A stretch of 64,000 nt of DNA from Bacteroidales bacterium (GTDB lineage Bacteria > Bacteroidota > Bacteroidia > Bacteroidales > WCHB1-69), in the NCBI GenBank assembly GCA_028693085.1, contig JAQUWC010000001.1:18951-82950 (forward strand), written 5' to 3'. The first letter of the stretch is position 1, and the number at the start of each line of letters is the position of its first letter. Below the pieces are notes generated by a model that worked only from the letters and a program-made list of their open reading frames with translations, had not been told where the DNA came from and searched no databases. The position numbers were made by a program, and so were the translations under genes. Shown here in pieces: positions 48,703 to 54,348 of this stretch.

Positions 48703-48906
48703 TCAATAGGCTTCGCTTTTGTATAGATTATTGATGGTAAATTCTAATGTGTTGTTTCTCATATTGTAAAAATGCAAGACCGTTCCATTTGTATACGAAA
48801 AATAATTTTGTGCCAATTCATCAGGAAATGCTGGAAAATCCAACATCCTTTGACAAGCATGAGACATAATACTTAATAATATTATTAAACTGATTTTTGT
48901 TTTCAT
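48703..48906 (-). CDS. Truncated/chimeric small lipoprotein (67 aa), possibly a pseudogene
   Basis: MKTKISLIILLSIMSHAC. The signal-peptide DNA is ~90% identical to that of the 49691-50191 gene. The mature part (DFPAFPDELAQNYFSYTNGTVLHFYN) resembles the N-terminus of the 50205-50720 protein (DFPIDVRYFPYEEETILSFRN) but ends after ~48 aa. ATGA overlap with the upstream gene. Confidence 0.4.
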   Translation of the reverse strand: MKTKISLIILLSIMSHACQRMLDFPAFPDELAQNYFSYTNGTVLHFYNMRNNTLEFTINNLYKSEAY

Positions 48907-49562
48907 TGTATTTGATATTTTATTGACCAAACTACTATTGGAAAAACATTTGTATTTCTGCATGTTTCCATAAAACCCATTCCTGGAATATAATTTTGGT
49001 AGCCGTATAAATCCTTAACGGTTTTATCTGGTGTATATGAGATGTTAATCGCAATATCTGTACAAAGTTTTTTGTATATACGGATATGATAACCGGCGAC
49101 TCCGGTAAATCCAAATATAAACTTGTGGTGTTTTAATCGTTTCGTTTTGTCGGCCTCTTCATATATCCAAGAACTGCATAAATAAGCCGAAAAAAAGAAA
49201 TAATGCTTTTTATCAAACGATTTTCTGATATTATATTTCATCCCCCCCTTTAAGAATGCACCCGTTTGTTGTATCATAGTAAATCCATCGTTTCCACAAT
49301 CGAAATGAGGAGTTAATAACCATCCTATATAGTCCATCGATTTCGAATAATTAAAGGTAAATCCAGTATTAACTAAGAAGTCGTAGTGTGGATTATTGGA
49401 GAATGCATAAGTAATATCAATGGTAGTAGCGGGTAGTTGTAACAAATTAAGTCCTATTGCGTGATGCATTATCTTCTCTTCTTGACCAAGTCCTTTTTTT
49501 GGAATTAAAAACAGGATTGTGCATATAATAAAGATTATGTTTAATTTAATAATTGCTTTCAT
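48903..49562 (-). CDS. Hypothetical secreted protein, possibly an outer-membrane beta-barrel
   Basis: Signal peptide, 219 aa, with an alternating aromatic/hydrophilic pattern. Contains a G7 tract (plus-strand C7 at 49242-49248). Confidence 0.45.
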   Translation of the reverse strand: MKAIIKLNIIFIICTILFLIPKKGLGQEEKIMHHAIGLNLLQLPATTIDITYAFSNNPHYDFLVNTGFTFNYSKSMDYIGWLLTPHFDCGNDGFTMIQQTGAFLKGGMKYNIRKSFDKKHYFFFSAYLCSSWIYEEADKTKRLKHHKFIFGFTGVAGYHIRIYKKLCTDIAINISYTPDKTVKDLYGYQNYIPGMGFMETCRNTNVFPIVVWSIKYQIQ

Positions 49563-49566
49563 AGCA

Positions 49567-49719
49567 TTATTTTTTAATTAGTTTATACGTATATTTTTTT
49601 GTAGAAGAAGTGAAGAGCAATACATATATGCCTGTGCTTAATTCGGGAACAGAAAAATTAAAATAATAATTTCCGGCGGCCTGATTGTTTTCATTTGCTG
49701 CGGAGTTTTTCTTTGACAT
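49567..49719 (-). pseudogene. Orphan remnant of a T9SS C-terminal sorting domain
   Basis: In the +1 frame relative to the upstream gene: ...NNQAAGNYYFNFSVPELSTGIYVLLFTSSTKKYTYKLIKK*. This matches the distal half of a Por_Secre_tail domain (L..GIY...........K..K at the terminus). Only 50 codons are open, and the proximal half with the PNP motif is missing. Confidence 0.55.
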
Positions 49720-50191
49720 ACTTTTCAATTACTTTAAATTCTATCGTATAATCTTCCGGAATTTTGGGAACCAATACCCAATTCCAGCTTGTATTATTTT
49801 TCTCACATCCTCCACATTGATGTACGGTTATGGTATATACTATTTTCTTGTGCTTTATATCTTTGGAAACATATCGCTCAAAGACGACGGAACATCCTGC
49901 TGTATTTACTTCTTTTTCAAGTACAGAATATTTTGAAAAGTCAATCGTCTGGTAATACATGCCACCGTCAAAACTAACCCGTAAATTATCAATATTCTGT
50001 GAGTCGGATTGTATGCATTTCCCAGCCTCTTTCTGTGGAATTTCATTTAAATGCTTATTCACCGTACTCACTTTTGCATTTGAAATAATTTCTCCGGTTC
50101 CAATCTCTTCTTTCGGTAATATGCATTGCCTTTCACAACTCCAAAATATTCCTGTTAGCAATAGTATTAGTAAACTGATTTTTGCTTTCAT
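49691..50191 (-). CDS. Hypothetical Cys-rich lipoprotein
   Basis: Lipobox LLTGIFWSC-ERQ, 166 aa, with a CGGC motif. No family recognised. Confidence 0.5.
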   Translation of the reverse strand: MKAKISLLILLLTGIFWSCERQCILPKEEIGTGEIISNAKVSTVNKHLNEIPQKEAGKCIQSDSQNIDNLRVSFDGGMYYQTIDFSKYSVLEKEVNTAGCSVVFERYVSKDIKHKKIVYTITVHQCGGCEKNNTSWNWVLVPKIPEDYTIEFKVIEKYVKEKLRSK

Positions 50192-50204
50192 TGTATGATG
50201 ATTT

Positions 50205-50720
50205 TTATTCTATTAACTTCCAAACCTCCCCGTCTCCATCCGTCCATTCCGTAATGCCTTTGCCTTTGATAATGGTTACGCTTTGTTGATCATCATATAA
50301 CAAAATAGTATCTCCGAAGACATTATAATTATTCCCTTCAATGATTTTTTCTTTATTATAGTAATTTGTGAAATTATTATACAAAATGTCTATTGATAAA
50401 AGAATAGTATGGTAATGCGAATCATCAGGATTAGCTAATGCATTCAAACTACCGTTTATTTGTACCTTCCCAATTGGCGAAAAAGAATAATTGGCGGTAC
50501 ATAGACTTTTACTCCCCCATGGTATATTTTTATCTTTACTTTGCATTATATTTTGAGTGGTGGTAGATAGAGTATCTCCTTGTGCATTCCGAAAAGAAAG
50601 TATGGTTTCTTCTTCATAGGGGAAATACCGTACATCTATGGGAAAATCATTCGGACAACTTCTGCTGTATCCGAAAAAAACGAGTATCATAAAGAGAAAA
50701 ATTATGTGTTTTGATTTCAT
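50205..50720 (-). CDS. Hypothetical secreted protein/lipoprotein
   Basis: Start set at MKSKHIIFLFMILVFFGYSRSC. The C-terminus GKGITEWTDGDGEVWKLIE is loosely similar to the C-terminus of the 52536-53126 product. Confidence 0.5.
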   Translation of the reverse strand: MKSKHIIFLFMILVFFGYSRSCPNDFPIDVRYFPYEEETILSFRNAQGDTLSTTTQNIMQSKDKNIPWGSKSLCTANYSFSPIGKVQINGSLNALANPDDSHYHTILLSIDILYNNFTNYYNKEKIIEGNNYNVFGDTILLYDDQQSVTIIKGKGITEWTDGDGEVWKLIE

Positions 50721-50733
50721 GGCGATTAGTTTT

Positions 50734-52539
50734 TTATTCTTTAACAATTTTTTTAGTAATTATCTCATTTTCAGTTTTAATTTTAATTAAATAAATACCT
50801 TTTGATATATCGCCTATATCTAGTGTTGAGTTTGTATTATTGACAGTAAATACTTTAATCGTTTTTCCAACCACATCATATACATATACTTCCTTAATTA
50901 AACATTGTCCGTTATCTATTGTCAATTCATTATTGACAGGATTGGGAAATATTGTTAATTGTTTTTCCATATTACTTTCATCATATTTTCCGATGGATGT
51001 TGAGGTTAATGCTTTTTCTCCTGATGAATAATGAGTTCCACAAAAAACTAAATTACCCGAACAAGGTCGTATCTTTGCTGTAATATTTGCACCGTTTTGA
51101 ATATGAGTATTTGGAGAAAAAACAATTTGATTACCGGCTGTAAAATTATAATTTGCTTCATTTTCAAATACGGCAGATGAAATTTCAATGTTATTATTTG
51201 CCTGAATAGTCAATTCATTCAAATTTAAATCATAAAAATGTGTTGAACTAAAGATTCCGGATAAATTTAGATTTGATTGACATGCCCTAATTGGATCTAT
51301 TCCTTCATAAGATACAATGTCTGTATTTCCAAATAGAGCTTCTCGCATGGCATCACTATGAGACATACATGATTTAATTTTTCCGACCCAGTCATGTATT
51401 AAAGAACTATTACAATGATAATTCATTCCTCCGGAAATAGTTGCAATTATTCTTTTTTTACTATTTAAAAAAACAGGCGCACCTGATCCTCCTCCCATTA
51501 TAATTCCATCATCCCAATAAACATCCCATTTAGGACCTGCAAAATATTTTATTTTTCCTGACGTAATTTTTTTAGGATTTCCATCAGAATGATGAATACA
51601 GGTAACCTCATCACCAGCACTTCTATTCGTAATATCCACGCCTGCATAATAAACATTGTACTGAATAGGTATGGGTTCTGTTATGAGTAATAAGGCATTA
51701 TCGCTCCATGAAATATCACAGTATCCTACCAATTGAGAACCTTGGACTCTATAGTAATCGTATAGGTATCCATCTTCACCATTACAAAAGGAATTTTGAT
51801 AATTAAAATAAAATTCTGTGAGACTCCAATCTATAACTTCATCTGTACAATGTCTTGCCGTTAAAAAATATTGAACAAAATTATTCCGATAATTGTTTAC
51901 CAATGCCCCTGTACACTGACCAATCCACCCTCCTTCTTTTGGAAAATAATACAAAGCAACACTTCTTTTTTGGTCACACCAATTATTGCCTTCCGAACAA
52001 TTGATATCAATCATGCAGGAATAATCTGCTGTTGCTGCTTTTATAGCTTCATTAAATGATTCGGTAAAATGATAGATTTTTGATATCAATATTTGATTTT
52101 TGTATAATTCATCCATGGGGATTTCAATAATAATGCTACAGTGGTCGCCATGAAGAAAATTACTGATATACGAAGAGTCGGGTTTATGAATAAAATAAGC
52201 ACCTTGGTATTGATACCGTAAAGAATCATCCGTATAAAAAGAAACTATGGCATTGTTACTCAATATAAATTTTTGAAATACTATTTTTATTTCTTTAGCT
52301 CCATTTGATTGTATTTTAATAAGTTTACGCCAAATATTATTTTCTGTTTGAGCGAATTCTTTATCCAAACAATTTAGTTCCATATCACGTATAACTCCAC
52401 AAATATTTGAAAATGAATCAATTTTTGAAGAATCTATAATCGGAACTGGTAATACGATATTTTGTGCGACAATCTCCTTTTGTGCTTTTACTGCATAAGC
52501 AACAAAGAGCAGTATCATTAGTAAAACTATTTTTTTCAT
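50734..52539 (-). CDS. T9SS-sorted trypsin-fold (S1, lysyl-endopeptidase-like) serine protease with N-terminal propeptide
   Basis: Signal peptide. His motif FLTARHC, Asp in SDNALLLI, Ser motif GGGSGAPVF. C-terminal LTIFPNPVNNELTI...DISKGIYLIKIKTENEIITKKIVKE is a type-A T9SS CTD (nt ~50737-50960). Confidence 0.8.
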   Translation of the reverse strand: MKKIVLLMILLFVAYAVKAQKEIVAQNIVLPVPIIDSSKIDSFSNICGVIRDMELNCLDKEFAQTENNIWRKLIKIQSNGAKEIKIVFQKFILSNNAIVSFYTDDSLRYQYQGAYFIHKPDSSYISNFLHGDHCSIIIEIPMDELYKNQILISKIYHFTESFNEAIKAATADYSCMIDINCSEGNNWCDQKRSVALYYFPKEGGWIGQCTGALVNNYRNNFVQYFLTARHCTDEVIDWSLTEFYFNYQNSFCNGEDGYLYDYYRVQGSQLVGYCDISWSDNALLLITEPIPIQYNVYYAGVDITNRSAGDEVTCIHHSDGNPKKITSGKIKYFAGPKWDVYWDDGIIMGGGSGAPVFLNSKKRIIATISGGMNYHCNSSLIHDWVGKIKSCMSHSDAMREALFGNTDIVSYEGIDPIRACQSNLNLSGIFSSTHFYDLNLNELTIQANNNIEISSAVFENEANYNFTAGNQIVFSPNTHIQNGANITAKIRPCSGNLVFCGTHYSSGEKALTSTSIGKYDESNMEKQLTIFPNPVNNELTIDNGQCLIKEVYVYDVVGKTIKVFTVNNTNSTLDIGDISKGIYLIKIKTENEIITKKIVKE

Positions 52540-53126
52540 TGCTGTATATTTTTATCAGTTAATACCCAATCAAACTCATCAACTTTCATCATGCGAATAA
52601 GTCCTATATTTTTTGCCACATAAAACAGAAGGTTCTCATTGCTATATGATAATTCATTCATATTGAAGATATACACATCTTTATAAACGATGCCATCCAC
52701 ATCGTATTCGGCAAGATAGGTAACAGGACAATTGAAATTATTATTCTGATCACATGTAAATCGCAAAGGCAAATTTGTACTATATGAACCTCTAAAATCT
52801 GCAGTATTATCATAATCTATTTCCTCCCCTTGCGATATAATTCTCACTTCAAAATTAGTTAAGAAATGCCCCTTGATTTTTATGTATTCTGCAAAATCAT
52901 AAGCCTTTCGCCCACCTTTTGGCATCGGTGCAAATTTTAAAATTTCATAGTTTGTTACGGCCATTTTTTGTGTTTTTTGGCTCACACTGTCATAGTATGT
53001 CCATTCCGAACCGGCTTTAAAACAAAACAAATCTTTTACCAGTGTATTTATAGTACTTATATGTTCTTCTCTGCATGAAGAAAACAACAAACAAATGCCT
53101 ATTATTATCAAAACTATTCGTTTCAT
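52536..53126 (-). CDS. Hypothetical lipoprotein
   Basis: Lipobox CLLFSSC-REEH. ATGA overlap with the protease gene start and a 1-nt overlap with the upstream gene stop. Confidence 0.5.
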   Translation of the reverse strand: MKRIVLIIIGICLLFSSCREEHISTINTLVKDLFCFKAGSEWTYYDSVSQKTQKMAVTNYEILKFAPMPKGGRKAYDFAEYIKIKGHFLTNFEVRIISQGEEIDYDNTADFRGSYSTNLPLRFTCDQNNNFNCPVTYLAEYDVDGIVYKDVYIFNMNELSYSNENLLFYVAKNIGLIRMMKVDEFDWVLTDKNIQQ

Positions 53127-54034
53127 TATTCCCCTCCTTTCGCATGCTTCAGTTCATGGATTTGCTTCTCCAAATCAATGATATACAAAGTTAATTCTTC
53201 AATCTTACGAAGCAACATTTCGTCCATTTCGCCAATTTTGTAACCGTCGGCTTTGAACAGTTCGGCTGAAGGTATATCCGGAAGGTGTTTGTTGGTTTGA
53301 ATAAAAGCTTCCAATTCACTTAGCGACATAAGCATGTAATCTTTTTCAAATACATAATCGGCATCGGGTACATCGGCAATGACTTTTACCTCTTCGCAGA
53401 TAATACCCCCGTTTACCGCCAATTTATATTCCATATTCCGGTAATCTCCCTGATCATATCCTGTTTCAAATCCTACTCCGACCGTTCCGTTTCCGAAAAG
53501 GGTTAATGCGCTGATCCAATTTTTATTGGCTCTGAAATACAAATTGTCTTGGTAATCAATATAGGCATGTACGCCAGTATGTGTAATACGTAATCTGGGA
53601 TTATCTTCTGATGAAGAATTTCCAATATTAAAATTCACTCCAAAAGGTATAAATACATTGGATTGTAAATTTATTTTATCTCCCGCATTTACATTAATGT
53701 TTCCTACCCCAAATGATGAATTTATTATATTTAGATCATTACTATTTCCTATCAATTCCGAAACATATATAGGATTATTAAAATTAAAACCAATTCTATC
53801 TGTTTCGAATTCTGCAATGAATGGATTCATTCCTATTTTTACAAATCCATTGTAATTGGTCATGATAAATTCATGATAGTCTGGTGCAGTATACTGAACC
53901 TGTGATATTAGAGAGGTATTGCATATAAAAATAAATAAGAGTAAGAATAATACTTTTGTTATTCCTTGTTGCGTTTTACGTTGATACTTGTTGTTTAAAA
54001 CAACCTCTGTGTTTAAAAAAATTCGTGTTTTCAT
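53126..54034 (-). CDS. Hypothetical membrane-anchored protein with a tail-fibre-like C-terminal module and coiled coil
   Basis: N-terminal anchor VLFLLLFIFICNTSLISQ and a Gly/Asn-rich beta region. C-terminus: YKLAVNGGIICEEVKVIADVPDADYVFEKDYMLMSLSELEAFIQTNKHLPDIPSAELFKADGYKIGEMDEMLLRKIEELTLYIIDLEKQI. I recall this motif block from uncharacterised Bacteroidota proteins sometimes labelled tail fibre domain. Confidence 0.45.
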   Translation of the reverse strand: MKTRIFLNTEVVLNNKYQRKTQQGITKVLFLLLFIFICNTSLISQVQYTAPDYHEFIMTNYNGFVKIGMNPFIAEFETDRIGFNFNNPIYVSELIGNSNDLNIINSSFGVGNINVNAGDKINLQSNVFIPFGVNFNIGNSSSEDNPRLRITHTGVHAYIDYQDNLYFRANKNWISALTLFGNGTVGVGFETGYDQGDYRNMEYKLAVNGGIICEEVKVIADVPDADYVFEKDYMLMSLSELEAFIQTNKHLPDIPSAELFKADGYKIGEMDEMLLRKIEELTLYIIDLEKQIHELKHAKGGE

Positions 54035-54068
54035 TTTCTATGATTTTTAGTTAAAGATTAGTTTGGAA

Positions 54069-54076
54069 CAAATATA
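54069..54076 (-). promoter_or_regulatory. -7 promoter box (TATATTTG on minus strand) for the protease island operon
   Basis: TAnnTTTG match 35 nt upstream of the ATG at 54034. Confidence 0.4.
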
Positions 54077-54250
54077 CTCCTTTTTTTTATAAATCGAATA
54101 ATTTCTTGAAATATTTTCTAATTTATAGAAAAACAGTGGTATAAACAAAGAAGAAGATAAAAATATGGTATGCTTATCTTTTCTTTTTACTTTGAATTTG
54201 CCTGAAAATGGAAGCTATTTCCTTATTTTTATTTAGTTTTAAGAATCATC

Positions 54251-54348
54251 ATTGTCCGATAAAAATTCCGATATTGTTACAGATTCTGAGCGTAACGAAG
54301 TGAAGCGAAGAATCTGTTGGATTTTATCGGACAATAATTGGTTTTTTT
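54251..54348 (+). other. Compound hairpin followed by T7: orphan terminator-like, sRNA 3' end, or REP-like element
   Basis: Outer perfect 14-bp stem ATTGTCCGATAAAA (54251-54264) / TTTTATCGGACAAT (54322-54335). Inner perfect 9-bp stem ACAGATTCT (54279-54287) / AGAATCTGT (54309-54317). T7 at 54342-54348. Confidence 0.4.

Follow-up and report, generated by a model that had tools for sequence, protein, structure and literature searches.

A cluster of seven genes for secreted proteins, built around a protease with a type IX secretion system (T9SS) C-terminal domain (CTD), occupies positions 48703-54034 of a 64,000-nucleotide stretch of a Bacteroidales genome (contig JAQUWC010000001.1, positions 18,951 to 82,950, forward strand), which is referred to here as the window. 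We read this cluster as a composite, recombination-shuffled T9SS cargo locus, made of a gene triad (Module A: p302, p196 and p601), a separable group of small-protein genes (Module B: p180, p166 and p219) and relics, and put the probability of this reading at about 0.6. In Bacteroidota, the principal secreted enzymes and virulence factors are T9SS cargos. The features of the locus, numbered from the first position of the window, are:

54069-54076, minus strand: Bacteroidota-type -7 promoter box, TATATTTG, recognised by its sequence, 35 nt 5' of the p302 ATG.
52528-54163, minus strand: left homology arm (promoter, p302 and p196), from a blastn match of 83% over 1699 nt to a congener locus, L019.
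53126-54034, minus strand: p302, secreted tail-fibre-like protein (homologs, AlphaFold2 (AF2) model, weak fold matches).
52536-53126, minus strand: p196, lipoprotein (lipobox LFSSC), translationally coupled to p302 (TAATG) and p601 (ATGA).
52553-53092, minus strand: recent recombination or transfer tract over p196, with 96-99% sliding DNA identity to congener G002.
50734-52539, minus strand: p601, predicted precursor of a Lys-C/Achromobacter protease I (API)-type S1 endopeptidase (homology to PDB 4nsy, invariant triad).
51058-51204, minus strand: '3-coathanger stack' domain (GCX_COOH, NF045639), p601 residues 446-494 (NCBIfam, 26.6 bits, cut-off 26).
50737-50952, minus strand: type-A T9SS CTD, p601 residues 530-601 (PF18962, TIGR04183).
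50205-50720, minus strand: p180 (171 aa from the ATG at 50720), lineage-specific lipoprotein (52 representative relatives).
49691-50191, minus strand: p166, Cys-rich lipoprotein (homologs alternating with p180-like genes at locus L126).
49554-49696, minus strand: orphan T9SS CTD stub of ~47 terminal codons, in another frame than p166 (match to Por_Secre_tail positions 36-74, E 0.0065).
48903-49562, minus strand: p219, secreted, putative small outer-membrane beta-barrel protein (19 relatives, no Pfam match).
48703-48906, minus strand: p67, truncated chimeric lipoprotein (p166-type signal-peptide DNA and a p180-type N-terminal segment).

Conserved and translationally coupled, the triad occurs in at least four other Bacteroidales loci, and with a p601-like protease it recurs at three unrelated genomic sites. 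Its gene order there, given as product lengths in amino acids, is 309-141-201-601 at L122 (from a termite gut), 308-191-192-604 at L123 and 322-204-607-205 at L124, with identities to the window proteins of 55-74% (protease), 50-60% (p196) and 34-54% (p302). Missing from all three loci are p180, p166, p219 and p67. These genes have a distribution of their own, as L126, a locus of an anaerobic-digester relative between an M16 peptidase gene and gcvT, carries an array led by a p219-like gene (84% identity) and followed by p166-like (75%), p180-like (59%), p166-like (64%) and p180-like (40%) genes and a 152-aa lipoprotein gene, with neither a protease nor p302. A preliminary description of this DNA had treated the seven genes as a single unit, which this distribution contradicts; conserved co-occurrence with the protease holds for p302 and p196 and fails for the other four. 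As a separate observation, the stretch 3' of the p601 ortholog in L124 (6001-9175) encodes a further p196 copy that shares 91% identity with the first, together with a series of small paralogous lipoproteins that have signal peptides in common, one of which matches Inhibitor_I42 (chagasin family).

The layout of the window locus was largely as first described. All seven open reading frames (ORFs) are co-directional, base 53126 is common to the p302 stop and the p196 start (TAATG), and ATGA overlaps join p196 to p601 (52536-52539) and p219 to p67 (48903-48906). Gaps of 13 nt, which had been assigned to every other junction, separate p601 from p180 (taking the ATG at 50720) and p180 from p166, but the p166/p219 gap is 128 nt and contains the orphan CTD remnant. 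A signal peptide or lipobox was seen by inspection in each of the seven products. The promoter box (54076-54069) indeed heads the cluster as its sole intergenic TAnnTTTG, the other seven occurrences of this motif being inside coding sequences, and the promoter region (54126-54035) is 76-83% conserved in the homologous arms of L019, L022 and C111, a contig of the window's own genome. No terminator-like hairpin was found by a terminator scan within the cluster, and an Rfam scan of 48-55 kb gave zero matches. An independent ENA assembly aligned gap-free to 6201 nt of the locus, differed at 2 positions and also contained the CTD stub, and several Logan assemblies were concordant with the locus structure. 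This match between independent assemblies indicates that the relics are not artefacts of this metagenome-assembled genome.

Comparison with L019 delimited the segments that have been exchanged. In congener G002, which carries L019, the locus reads p321-p196-p110-657-aa S1 protease and lies between the M16 peptidase gene and gcvT. Homology in the left arm ends exactly at the p196 stop and protease start; the interior is non-homologous, with 27% amino acid identity between the two proteases, and homology restarts at 49696-49554 (87%), the counterpart of the final ~47 CTD codons in the L019 protease gene. Congener G007 has nothing at the M16/gcvT site, which is occupied by a Module A variant in G002 and by Module B in L126. 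The coordinates of this junction are 8483-8707 in L117 (empty), 7713-12399 in L019 and 6790-10819 in L126; in the window's own genome, the M16 and gcvT flanking genes lie at contig ends (C139 and C17).

Another such locus, next to trpS on C111, encodes a C25/gingipain-like CTD protein with a p180 paralog behind it. The promoter and first 74 codons of this C25 gene match p302 (76% DNA identity) and its CTD matches the stub (83%), and in a relative the trpS site is occupied by p306-p128-M4 peptidase. Each peptidase type has its own lipoprotein gene directly 5' of it, namely p196 for the p601 type, p110 for the 657-aa S1 protease and p128 for the M4 peptidase. The G002 locus had been considered ancestral and the window protease a newcomer; this polarity was reversed because p601 orthologs are present in the three other triad loci.

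The relics are consistent with the same process. By its sequence, the CTD stub is both the relic of a displaced peptidase gene and the right-hand recombination arm. Its interpretation as a frameshifted p166 C-terminus was rejected, as its DNA matches peptidase 3' ends in L019 (87%) and C111 (83%) and as the p166 orthologs of L126 (157 and 155 aa) have no CTD at their ends. In p67, the DNA at 48875-48924 is 88% identical to 50160-50209, and the protein aligned to p180 by BLASTP (32% over 75 aa, E 5e-6). In DNA, p196 shares 97% identity with its G002 counterpart. Of 197 codons, 7 differ synonymously and 11 non-synonymously, compared with synonymous differences at 211 of 592 codons in the fadD2 orthologs, and the identity drops to 53% at the p196 stop. 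This pattern marks a tract of recent recombination or transfer. Cassette replacement, the CTD stub, the chimeric p67 and the 97%-identical p196 tract thus show piecewise recombination, and for a secretion-cargo locus they illustrate clearly how cassettes are exchanged between conserved arms.

We propose that new enzyme cassettes enter by homologous recombination between two conserved arms, the left one made up of the promoter, p302 and the lipoprotein gene, the right one of the CTD, and that p180, p166 and p219 would likewise have been brought in by recombination, leaving the CTD stub and chimeric p67 as relics. Swappable cassettes between conserved arms and orphan remnants, by which a polymorphic toxin/immunity locus is recognised, were both found. 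As in contact-dependent inhibition (CDI) and Rhs polymorphic toxins, cassettes are swapped between arms, 3' orphan fragments are kept and genes for small cognate proteins co-travel. Unlike in CDI/Rhs systems, what is exchanged is a secreted hydrolase with a T9SS CTD and not the toxin tip of a delivery protein, and the part of the conserved arms is taken by a separate upstream gene and by the CTD.

The central enzyme, p601, had been called a Lys-C-like S1 protease with a T9SS CTD, and this was borne out. It consists of a signal peptide (residues 1-20), a prodomain (~21-170), a catalytic domain (174-390; nt 51370-52020), the coathanger domain and the CTD. Residues 174-378 matched PDB 4nsy (E 1.9e-18) and 1arb (E 1.3e-14) by phmmer, and the triad H230 (TARHC), D280 (SDNALL) and S352 (GGSGAP) aligned to the API motifs and is invariant among six relatives. 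Pfam Trypsin_2 scored 22.5 bits against a cut-off of 27.6, whereas the L019 relatives scored above it. Lysyl endopeptidase/API (1arb, 4nsy) has a homologous catalytic domain, with which p601 aligns in the His, Asp and Ser motifs and at several Cys positions that form disulfides. The identity is only ~30%, and p601 differs from API in its N-terminal prodomain and in the added coathanger domain and T9SS CTD. By homology we assign p601 to the Lys-C-type S1 peptidases, with Lys specificity at P1 as a prediction. The CTD scored 50.2 bits with PF18962 (cut-off 27, 3.3e-13) and 52.1 bits with TIGR04183 (cut-off 23, 4.9e-14). The genome encodes 61 CTD ORFs and the T9SS components PorU (NF033707, 707 bits) and PorV (NF033710, 435 bits), both above cut-off. 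The p601 zymogen would cross the inner membrane by Sec, fold in the periplasm and be exported by the T9SS through its type-A CTD.

The first gene of the triad encodes a protein with a signal peptide (predicted cleavage between S44 and Q45), a beta-rich variable middle and a conserved C-terminal module of ~135 aa (nt 53129-53542) with a coiled coil at its end. The C-terminal module and coiled coil probably drive oligomerisation. Neither a T9SS CTD nor a Pfam domain was found in p302, and none of its at least 452 homologs has a Pfam domain; in species-representative genomes of Bacteroidota, at least 578 stretches contain the module itself. Members of the family lack both a CTD and the coathanger domain. 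Invariant residues of p302 include H250, S256 and K277. Their signal peptides are classical and directly followed by Gln, in agreement with the Bacteroidetes Q-rule (PMC5837995). The preliminary description had p302 anchored; these cleavable signal peptides followed by Gln instead indicate a secreted protein.

Its designation as tail-fibre-like stands in a loose sense only. The AF2 monomer model (predicted local distance difference test score, pLDDT, 71) gave weak Foldseek matches in PDB, the best being the Bdellovibrio Bd2133 fibre (E 0.02), and repeated matches to phage tail-fibre and intramolecular chaperone (IMC)-domain proteins in the viral library BFVD (E 2e-4 to 1e-2, query template-modelling score, TMq, at most 0.29). 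Peptidase_S74 (PF13884) matched 0 of 49 family members at E <= 0.01, and no PHROG match was found. Like phage IMC (Peptidase_S74-type) fibres, p302 combines a variable beta-rich body with a conserved C-terminal module and a helical or coiled-coil end; unlike them, it is chromosomal and non-phage, has a signal peptide and is linked to T9SS cargos, and the TM-scores do not exceed 0.29.

Two further arrangements of p302-like genes were observed. Contig C54 of the own genome (2.6 kb) contains a tandem duplicate of the p302-like C-terminal module and, behind it, a gene for a HEAT-like secreted protein of 288 aa; an amidase-like ORF on the contig is fused, at 'EKIEELTLYII' and without a frame change, to the final ~30 residues of the p302 module, and this fusion is another recombination product at the conserved C-terminus. 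At L038, L046, L049 and L063, a p302-like gene is followed by a tiny CTD protein (143-165 aa) and then a giant protein of ~1460 aa (L038) or ~2100 aa (the other three).

The p196 family comprises 46 clusters. Its lipid Cys, C35 and C125 do not vary, and the N-terminal motif NQLVKDLFCFKxGSEWTYYDS is nearly invariant. The AF2 model of p196 is all-beta (pLDDT 84, predicted TM-score 0.76), with at least 10 strands in a mature protein of ~178 residues. Foldseek returned no match at E <= 0.001; the 50 listed matches were LolA/ependymin/calycin-like (TM-score ~0.3) and contained no potempin, and the family profile retrieved nothing from PDB sequences. One metatranscriptome contig carries an extra T in an A/T homopolymer of p196 (position 52972) that would shift the frame and may reflect strain variation, slippage or an error.

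For the six non-protease products, Pfam, NCBIfam, PHROGs and PADLOC scans gave nothing usable. By hhalign, p219 showed a distant similarity (probability 82%, E 1e-5) to OMP_b-brl_2-type proteins at equivalent positions elsewhere, and its relatives occur in the contexts of L126, L128 and L129.

The locus is represented in RNA libraries. Metatranscriptome contigs from anaerobic digesters cover all genes with 0 mismatches and bridge the p302/p196, p196/p601, p180/p166 and p166/stub/p219 junctions; the contig over p196/p601 spans 52457-52701. These junction-spanning contigs fit a polycistronic transcript, with the reservation that they are unstranded and DNA carry-over is possible.

We surveyed the association between p302-family genes and T9SS cargos in 80 fetched loci, which are the best tblastn matches rather than a random sample and in which ORFs were called crudely. 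A Por_Secre_tail protein was encoded in the tight co-directional chain downstream of the p302-family gene in 34 of 69 loci, and a CTD cargo lay on either side of it in 41 of 74. CTD genes made up 28% of chain genes compared with 4.8% of other genes (odds ratio 7.9, p = 7e-13, Fisher); as this background is contaminated by CTD genes directly 5' of p302-like genes, the test is conservative. The gap between the stop of the p302-family gene and the start of the cargo gene had a median of 14 nt. The linked cargos included trypsin-like, C10, C25, M4, M23 and M12 peptidases, tyrosinase, GH16 and lipase-like proteins. Among the cultured, non-pathogenic organisms in which a CTD cargo follows a p302-like gene are Dokdonia pacifica DSM 25597 (L083), Galbibacter marinus ck-I2-15 (L075), Aquimarina pacifica SW150 (L031), Arenibacter aquaticus (L088) and Taibaiella lutea KVB11 (L081).

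The coathanger domain follows this linkage. It was present in 21 (NCBIfam) to 24 (local hidden Markov model) of 35 p302-linked cargos, compared with 4 of 28 among the remaining CTD proteins of these loci. In the own genome it was found in 2 of 61 CTD proteins, p601 and the C111 C25 protein, which are the two CTD genes with p302-type 5' arms. This association of the p302 family with coathanger cargos is phylum-wide and so far undescribed; literature searches on T9SS together with tail fibres, on interbacterial immunity and on the coathanger domain turned up no account of the linkage. We suggest that p302, which would be Sec-exported, cleaved by signal peptidase and fibre-like, with oligomers formed via its C-terminal module, may be a partner (a docking or scaffold fibre, or an export helper) of cargos that carry the coathanger domain just before the CTD. 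A Pfam-less family a median of 14 nt 5' of T9SS enzymes, tied to an otherwise rare cargo domain, makes this handling or display hypothesis directly testable. Cargo-specific partners of type-A cargos are not known; PorP/SprF adaptors serve type-B CTDs. Separately, four tandem GH16-like secreted proteins on own-genome contig C76 (449-6264) and one more on C115 (925-1920) have the coathanger domain at their very end (...PCE-COOH) and no T9SS CTD, so the domain may by itself act as a signal or anchor at the C-terminus.

For p196, the closest precedent is the KLIKK/potempin system of Tannerella forsythia, in which lipoprotein ORFs overlap or abut the starts of T9SS peptidase genes and are co-transcribed with them, potempins are beta-barrel inhibitors that shield the outer membrane, and the neighbourhood includes 'orphan' lipoproteins whose signal peptides are similar (PMC9890683). 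As in that system, a small lipoprotein ORF directly precedes the T9SS peptidase (p196, with lipobox LFSSC and the ATGA overlap), the peptidase has a prodomain, catalytic domain, intermediate regions and CTD, distinct lipoproteins stand before distinct peptidase classes (S1, M4), the partner is beta-rich and 'orphan' small lipoproteins with common signal peptides occur nearby. Because the p196/p601 layout is the same as that of proven potempin/KLIKK operons (PMC9890683), the protease/inhibitor idea of the preliminary description is a reasonable analogy for p196, which may act as a potempin-like, membrane-anchored guard or inhibitor of the presumably co-transcribed protease and so protect the producer's envelope.

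The differences are also clear. The C-terminus of p601 is ...TKKIVKE instead of KLIKK, the operon is led by a third conserved gene of the p302 family and its cargos carry the coathanger domain. The potempin/KLIKK arrangement has been described as unique to Tannerella forsythia (PMC9890683; Ksiazek et al., Chem Sci 2022), whereas the arrangement here is found in environmental Bacteroidota, with environmental Bacteroidales offering analogues of the lipoprotein-before-peptidase layout.

Several observations weigh against the composite cargo locus with functional partners. Potempins have 5-strand OB (oligonucleotide/oligosaccharide-binding) folds or 8-strand up-and-down barrels of 98-132 residues (PMC9890683), and p196 is larger (its ~178 mature residues and at least 10 strands), has no sequence similarity to them and retrieved none among its listed fold matches. 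A near-identical p196 (94% amino acid identity) precedes the very different S1 protease (27% identity) in G002, which argues against strict cognate specificity, unless p110 is the partner of that protease. About half of the p302-family loci have no adjacent CTD cargo, p302 has no CTD of its own for reaching the surface, the survey depended on crude ORF calls in loci chosen as best matches, and the unstranded metatranscriptome contigs may include DNA. A wider generalisation is tentative, and we consider it possible rather than probable: that the p302 family is a new phylum-wide T9SS accessory, a secreted and probably trimeric fibre that specifically partners coathanger type-A cargos, in docking or display on the cell surface or as a translocon escort, with p196-like lipoproteins as potempin-like guards and fibre-guard-enzyme cassettes exchanged by recombination.

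The polymorphic toxin-like evolution of the locus could alternatively reflect interbacterial antagonism, with T9SS enzymes as effectors, the small lipoproteins (p196, p180, p166 and the orphans) as immunity proteins and p302 targeting prey. Arm-to-arm cassette swaps, the CTD stub, the chimeric truncated lipoprotein and the paralogous small-lipoprotein arrays are in line with this, as are the M23 peptidase and a peptidoglycan-hydrolase-like match among linked cargos elsewhere and the weak fold matches of p302 to the Bdellovibrio Bd2133 fibre and phage receptor-binding fibres. Lys-C-type enzymes, moreover, were first found in the bacteriolytic Lysobacter and Achromobacter. We nevertheless judge it unlikely, since general degradative enzymes are numerous among the linked cargos (tyrosinase, GH16, lipase-like, M4, C10 and C25), PADLOC and toxin- and immunity-family scans gave no match, T9SS substrates are released or attached to the surface, with no injection by this system known, and the candidate 'immunity' gene lies 5' of the enzyme gene, as in potempin operons.

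It is also improbable that no dedicated partnership exists, with p601 as an ordinary nutritional protease of a proteolytic digester bacterium, p302 and the lipoproteins as unrelated envelope proteins gathered at a recombination hotspot, and shared regulation or hitch-hiking as the cause of their adjacency. Stop/start overlaps tie p302, p196 and p601 to each other, the triad is kept across lineages at different genomic sites, p302-family genes are enriched next to CTD genes throughout the phylum (odds ratio 7.9, p = 7e-13), and the coathanger domain is specific to linked cargos (24/35 versus 2/61). In favour of this no-partnership reading are the habitats of the organism (anaerobic digesters, biogas reactors and compost), the 61 CTD proteins of the genome, fluid synteny in the genus, the separable Module B and small proteins that matched no known inhibitor family in family scans or, for p196, in fold and PDB searches.

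Last, a single, very AT-rich, horizontally acquired seven-gene island between core genes is largely refuted by composition and module separability and has very little probability left, notwithstanding a GC content slightly below the genome mean, the low GC content at third codon positions (GC3) of p601, congeners that lack the island beside fadD2 and the recent exchange over p196. The preliminary description had contrasted ~20% GC in sampled lines of the island with 50% or more in parts of the fadD genes, and had taken this to suggest a foreign origin. Windowed GC and GC3 calculations did not uphold either point: island GC is 0.317 against a genome value of 0.357 +/- 0.027 in 5.4-kb windows (z -1.5, 6th percentile), and lines of 60 nt have a median GC of 0.32 in the island, compared with 0.35 in fadD. 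The one gene of unusual composition is p601, with a GC3 of 0.188 in the lowest 1.4% of 1058 long ORFs, whereas GC3 is ordinary in the other six genes; the protease gene may thus have a history different from that of its operon partners. There was no integrase or transposase ORF and no tRNA, and self-blastn detected no flanking direct repeats, so that composition, mobility genes, repeats and tRNA all speak against a horizontally acquired genomic island, as do two modules of different distribution plus relics. The claim that the cluster is inserted between core genes (the fadD paralogs and tnaA) fared no better. Congeners have no island adjoining fadD2, and the synteny 3' of fadD2 is different in each of them, so no clean insertion site can be defined; the attempt to derive a fadD2/tnaA insertion site from congeners was abandoned for this reason.

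Between tnaA and the operon, a ~98-bp palindromic element (54243-54340) proved to be a dispersed repeat and not an orphan hairpin. It has ~32 matching places on 20 contigs of the own genome, and contigs of many public assemblies end at it.

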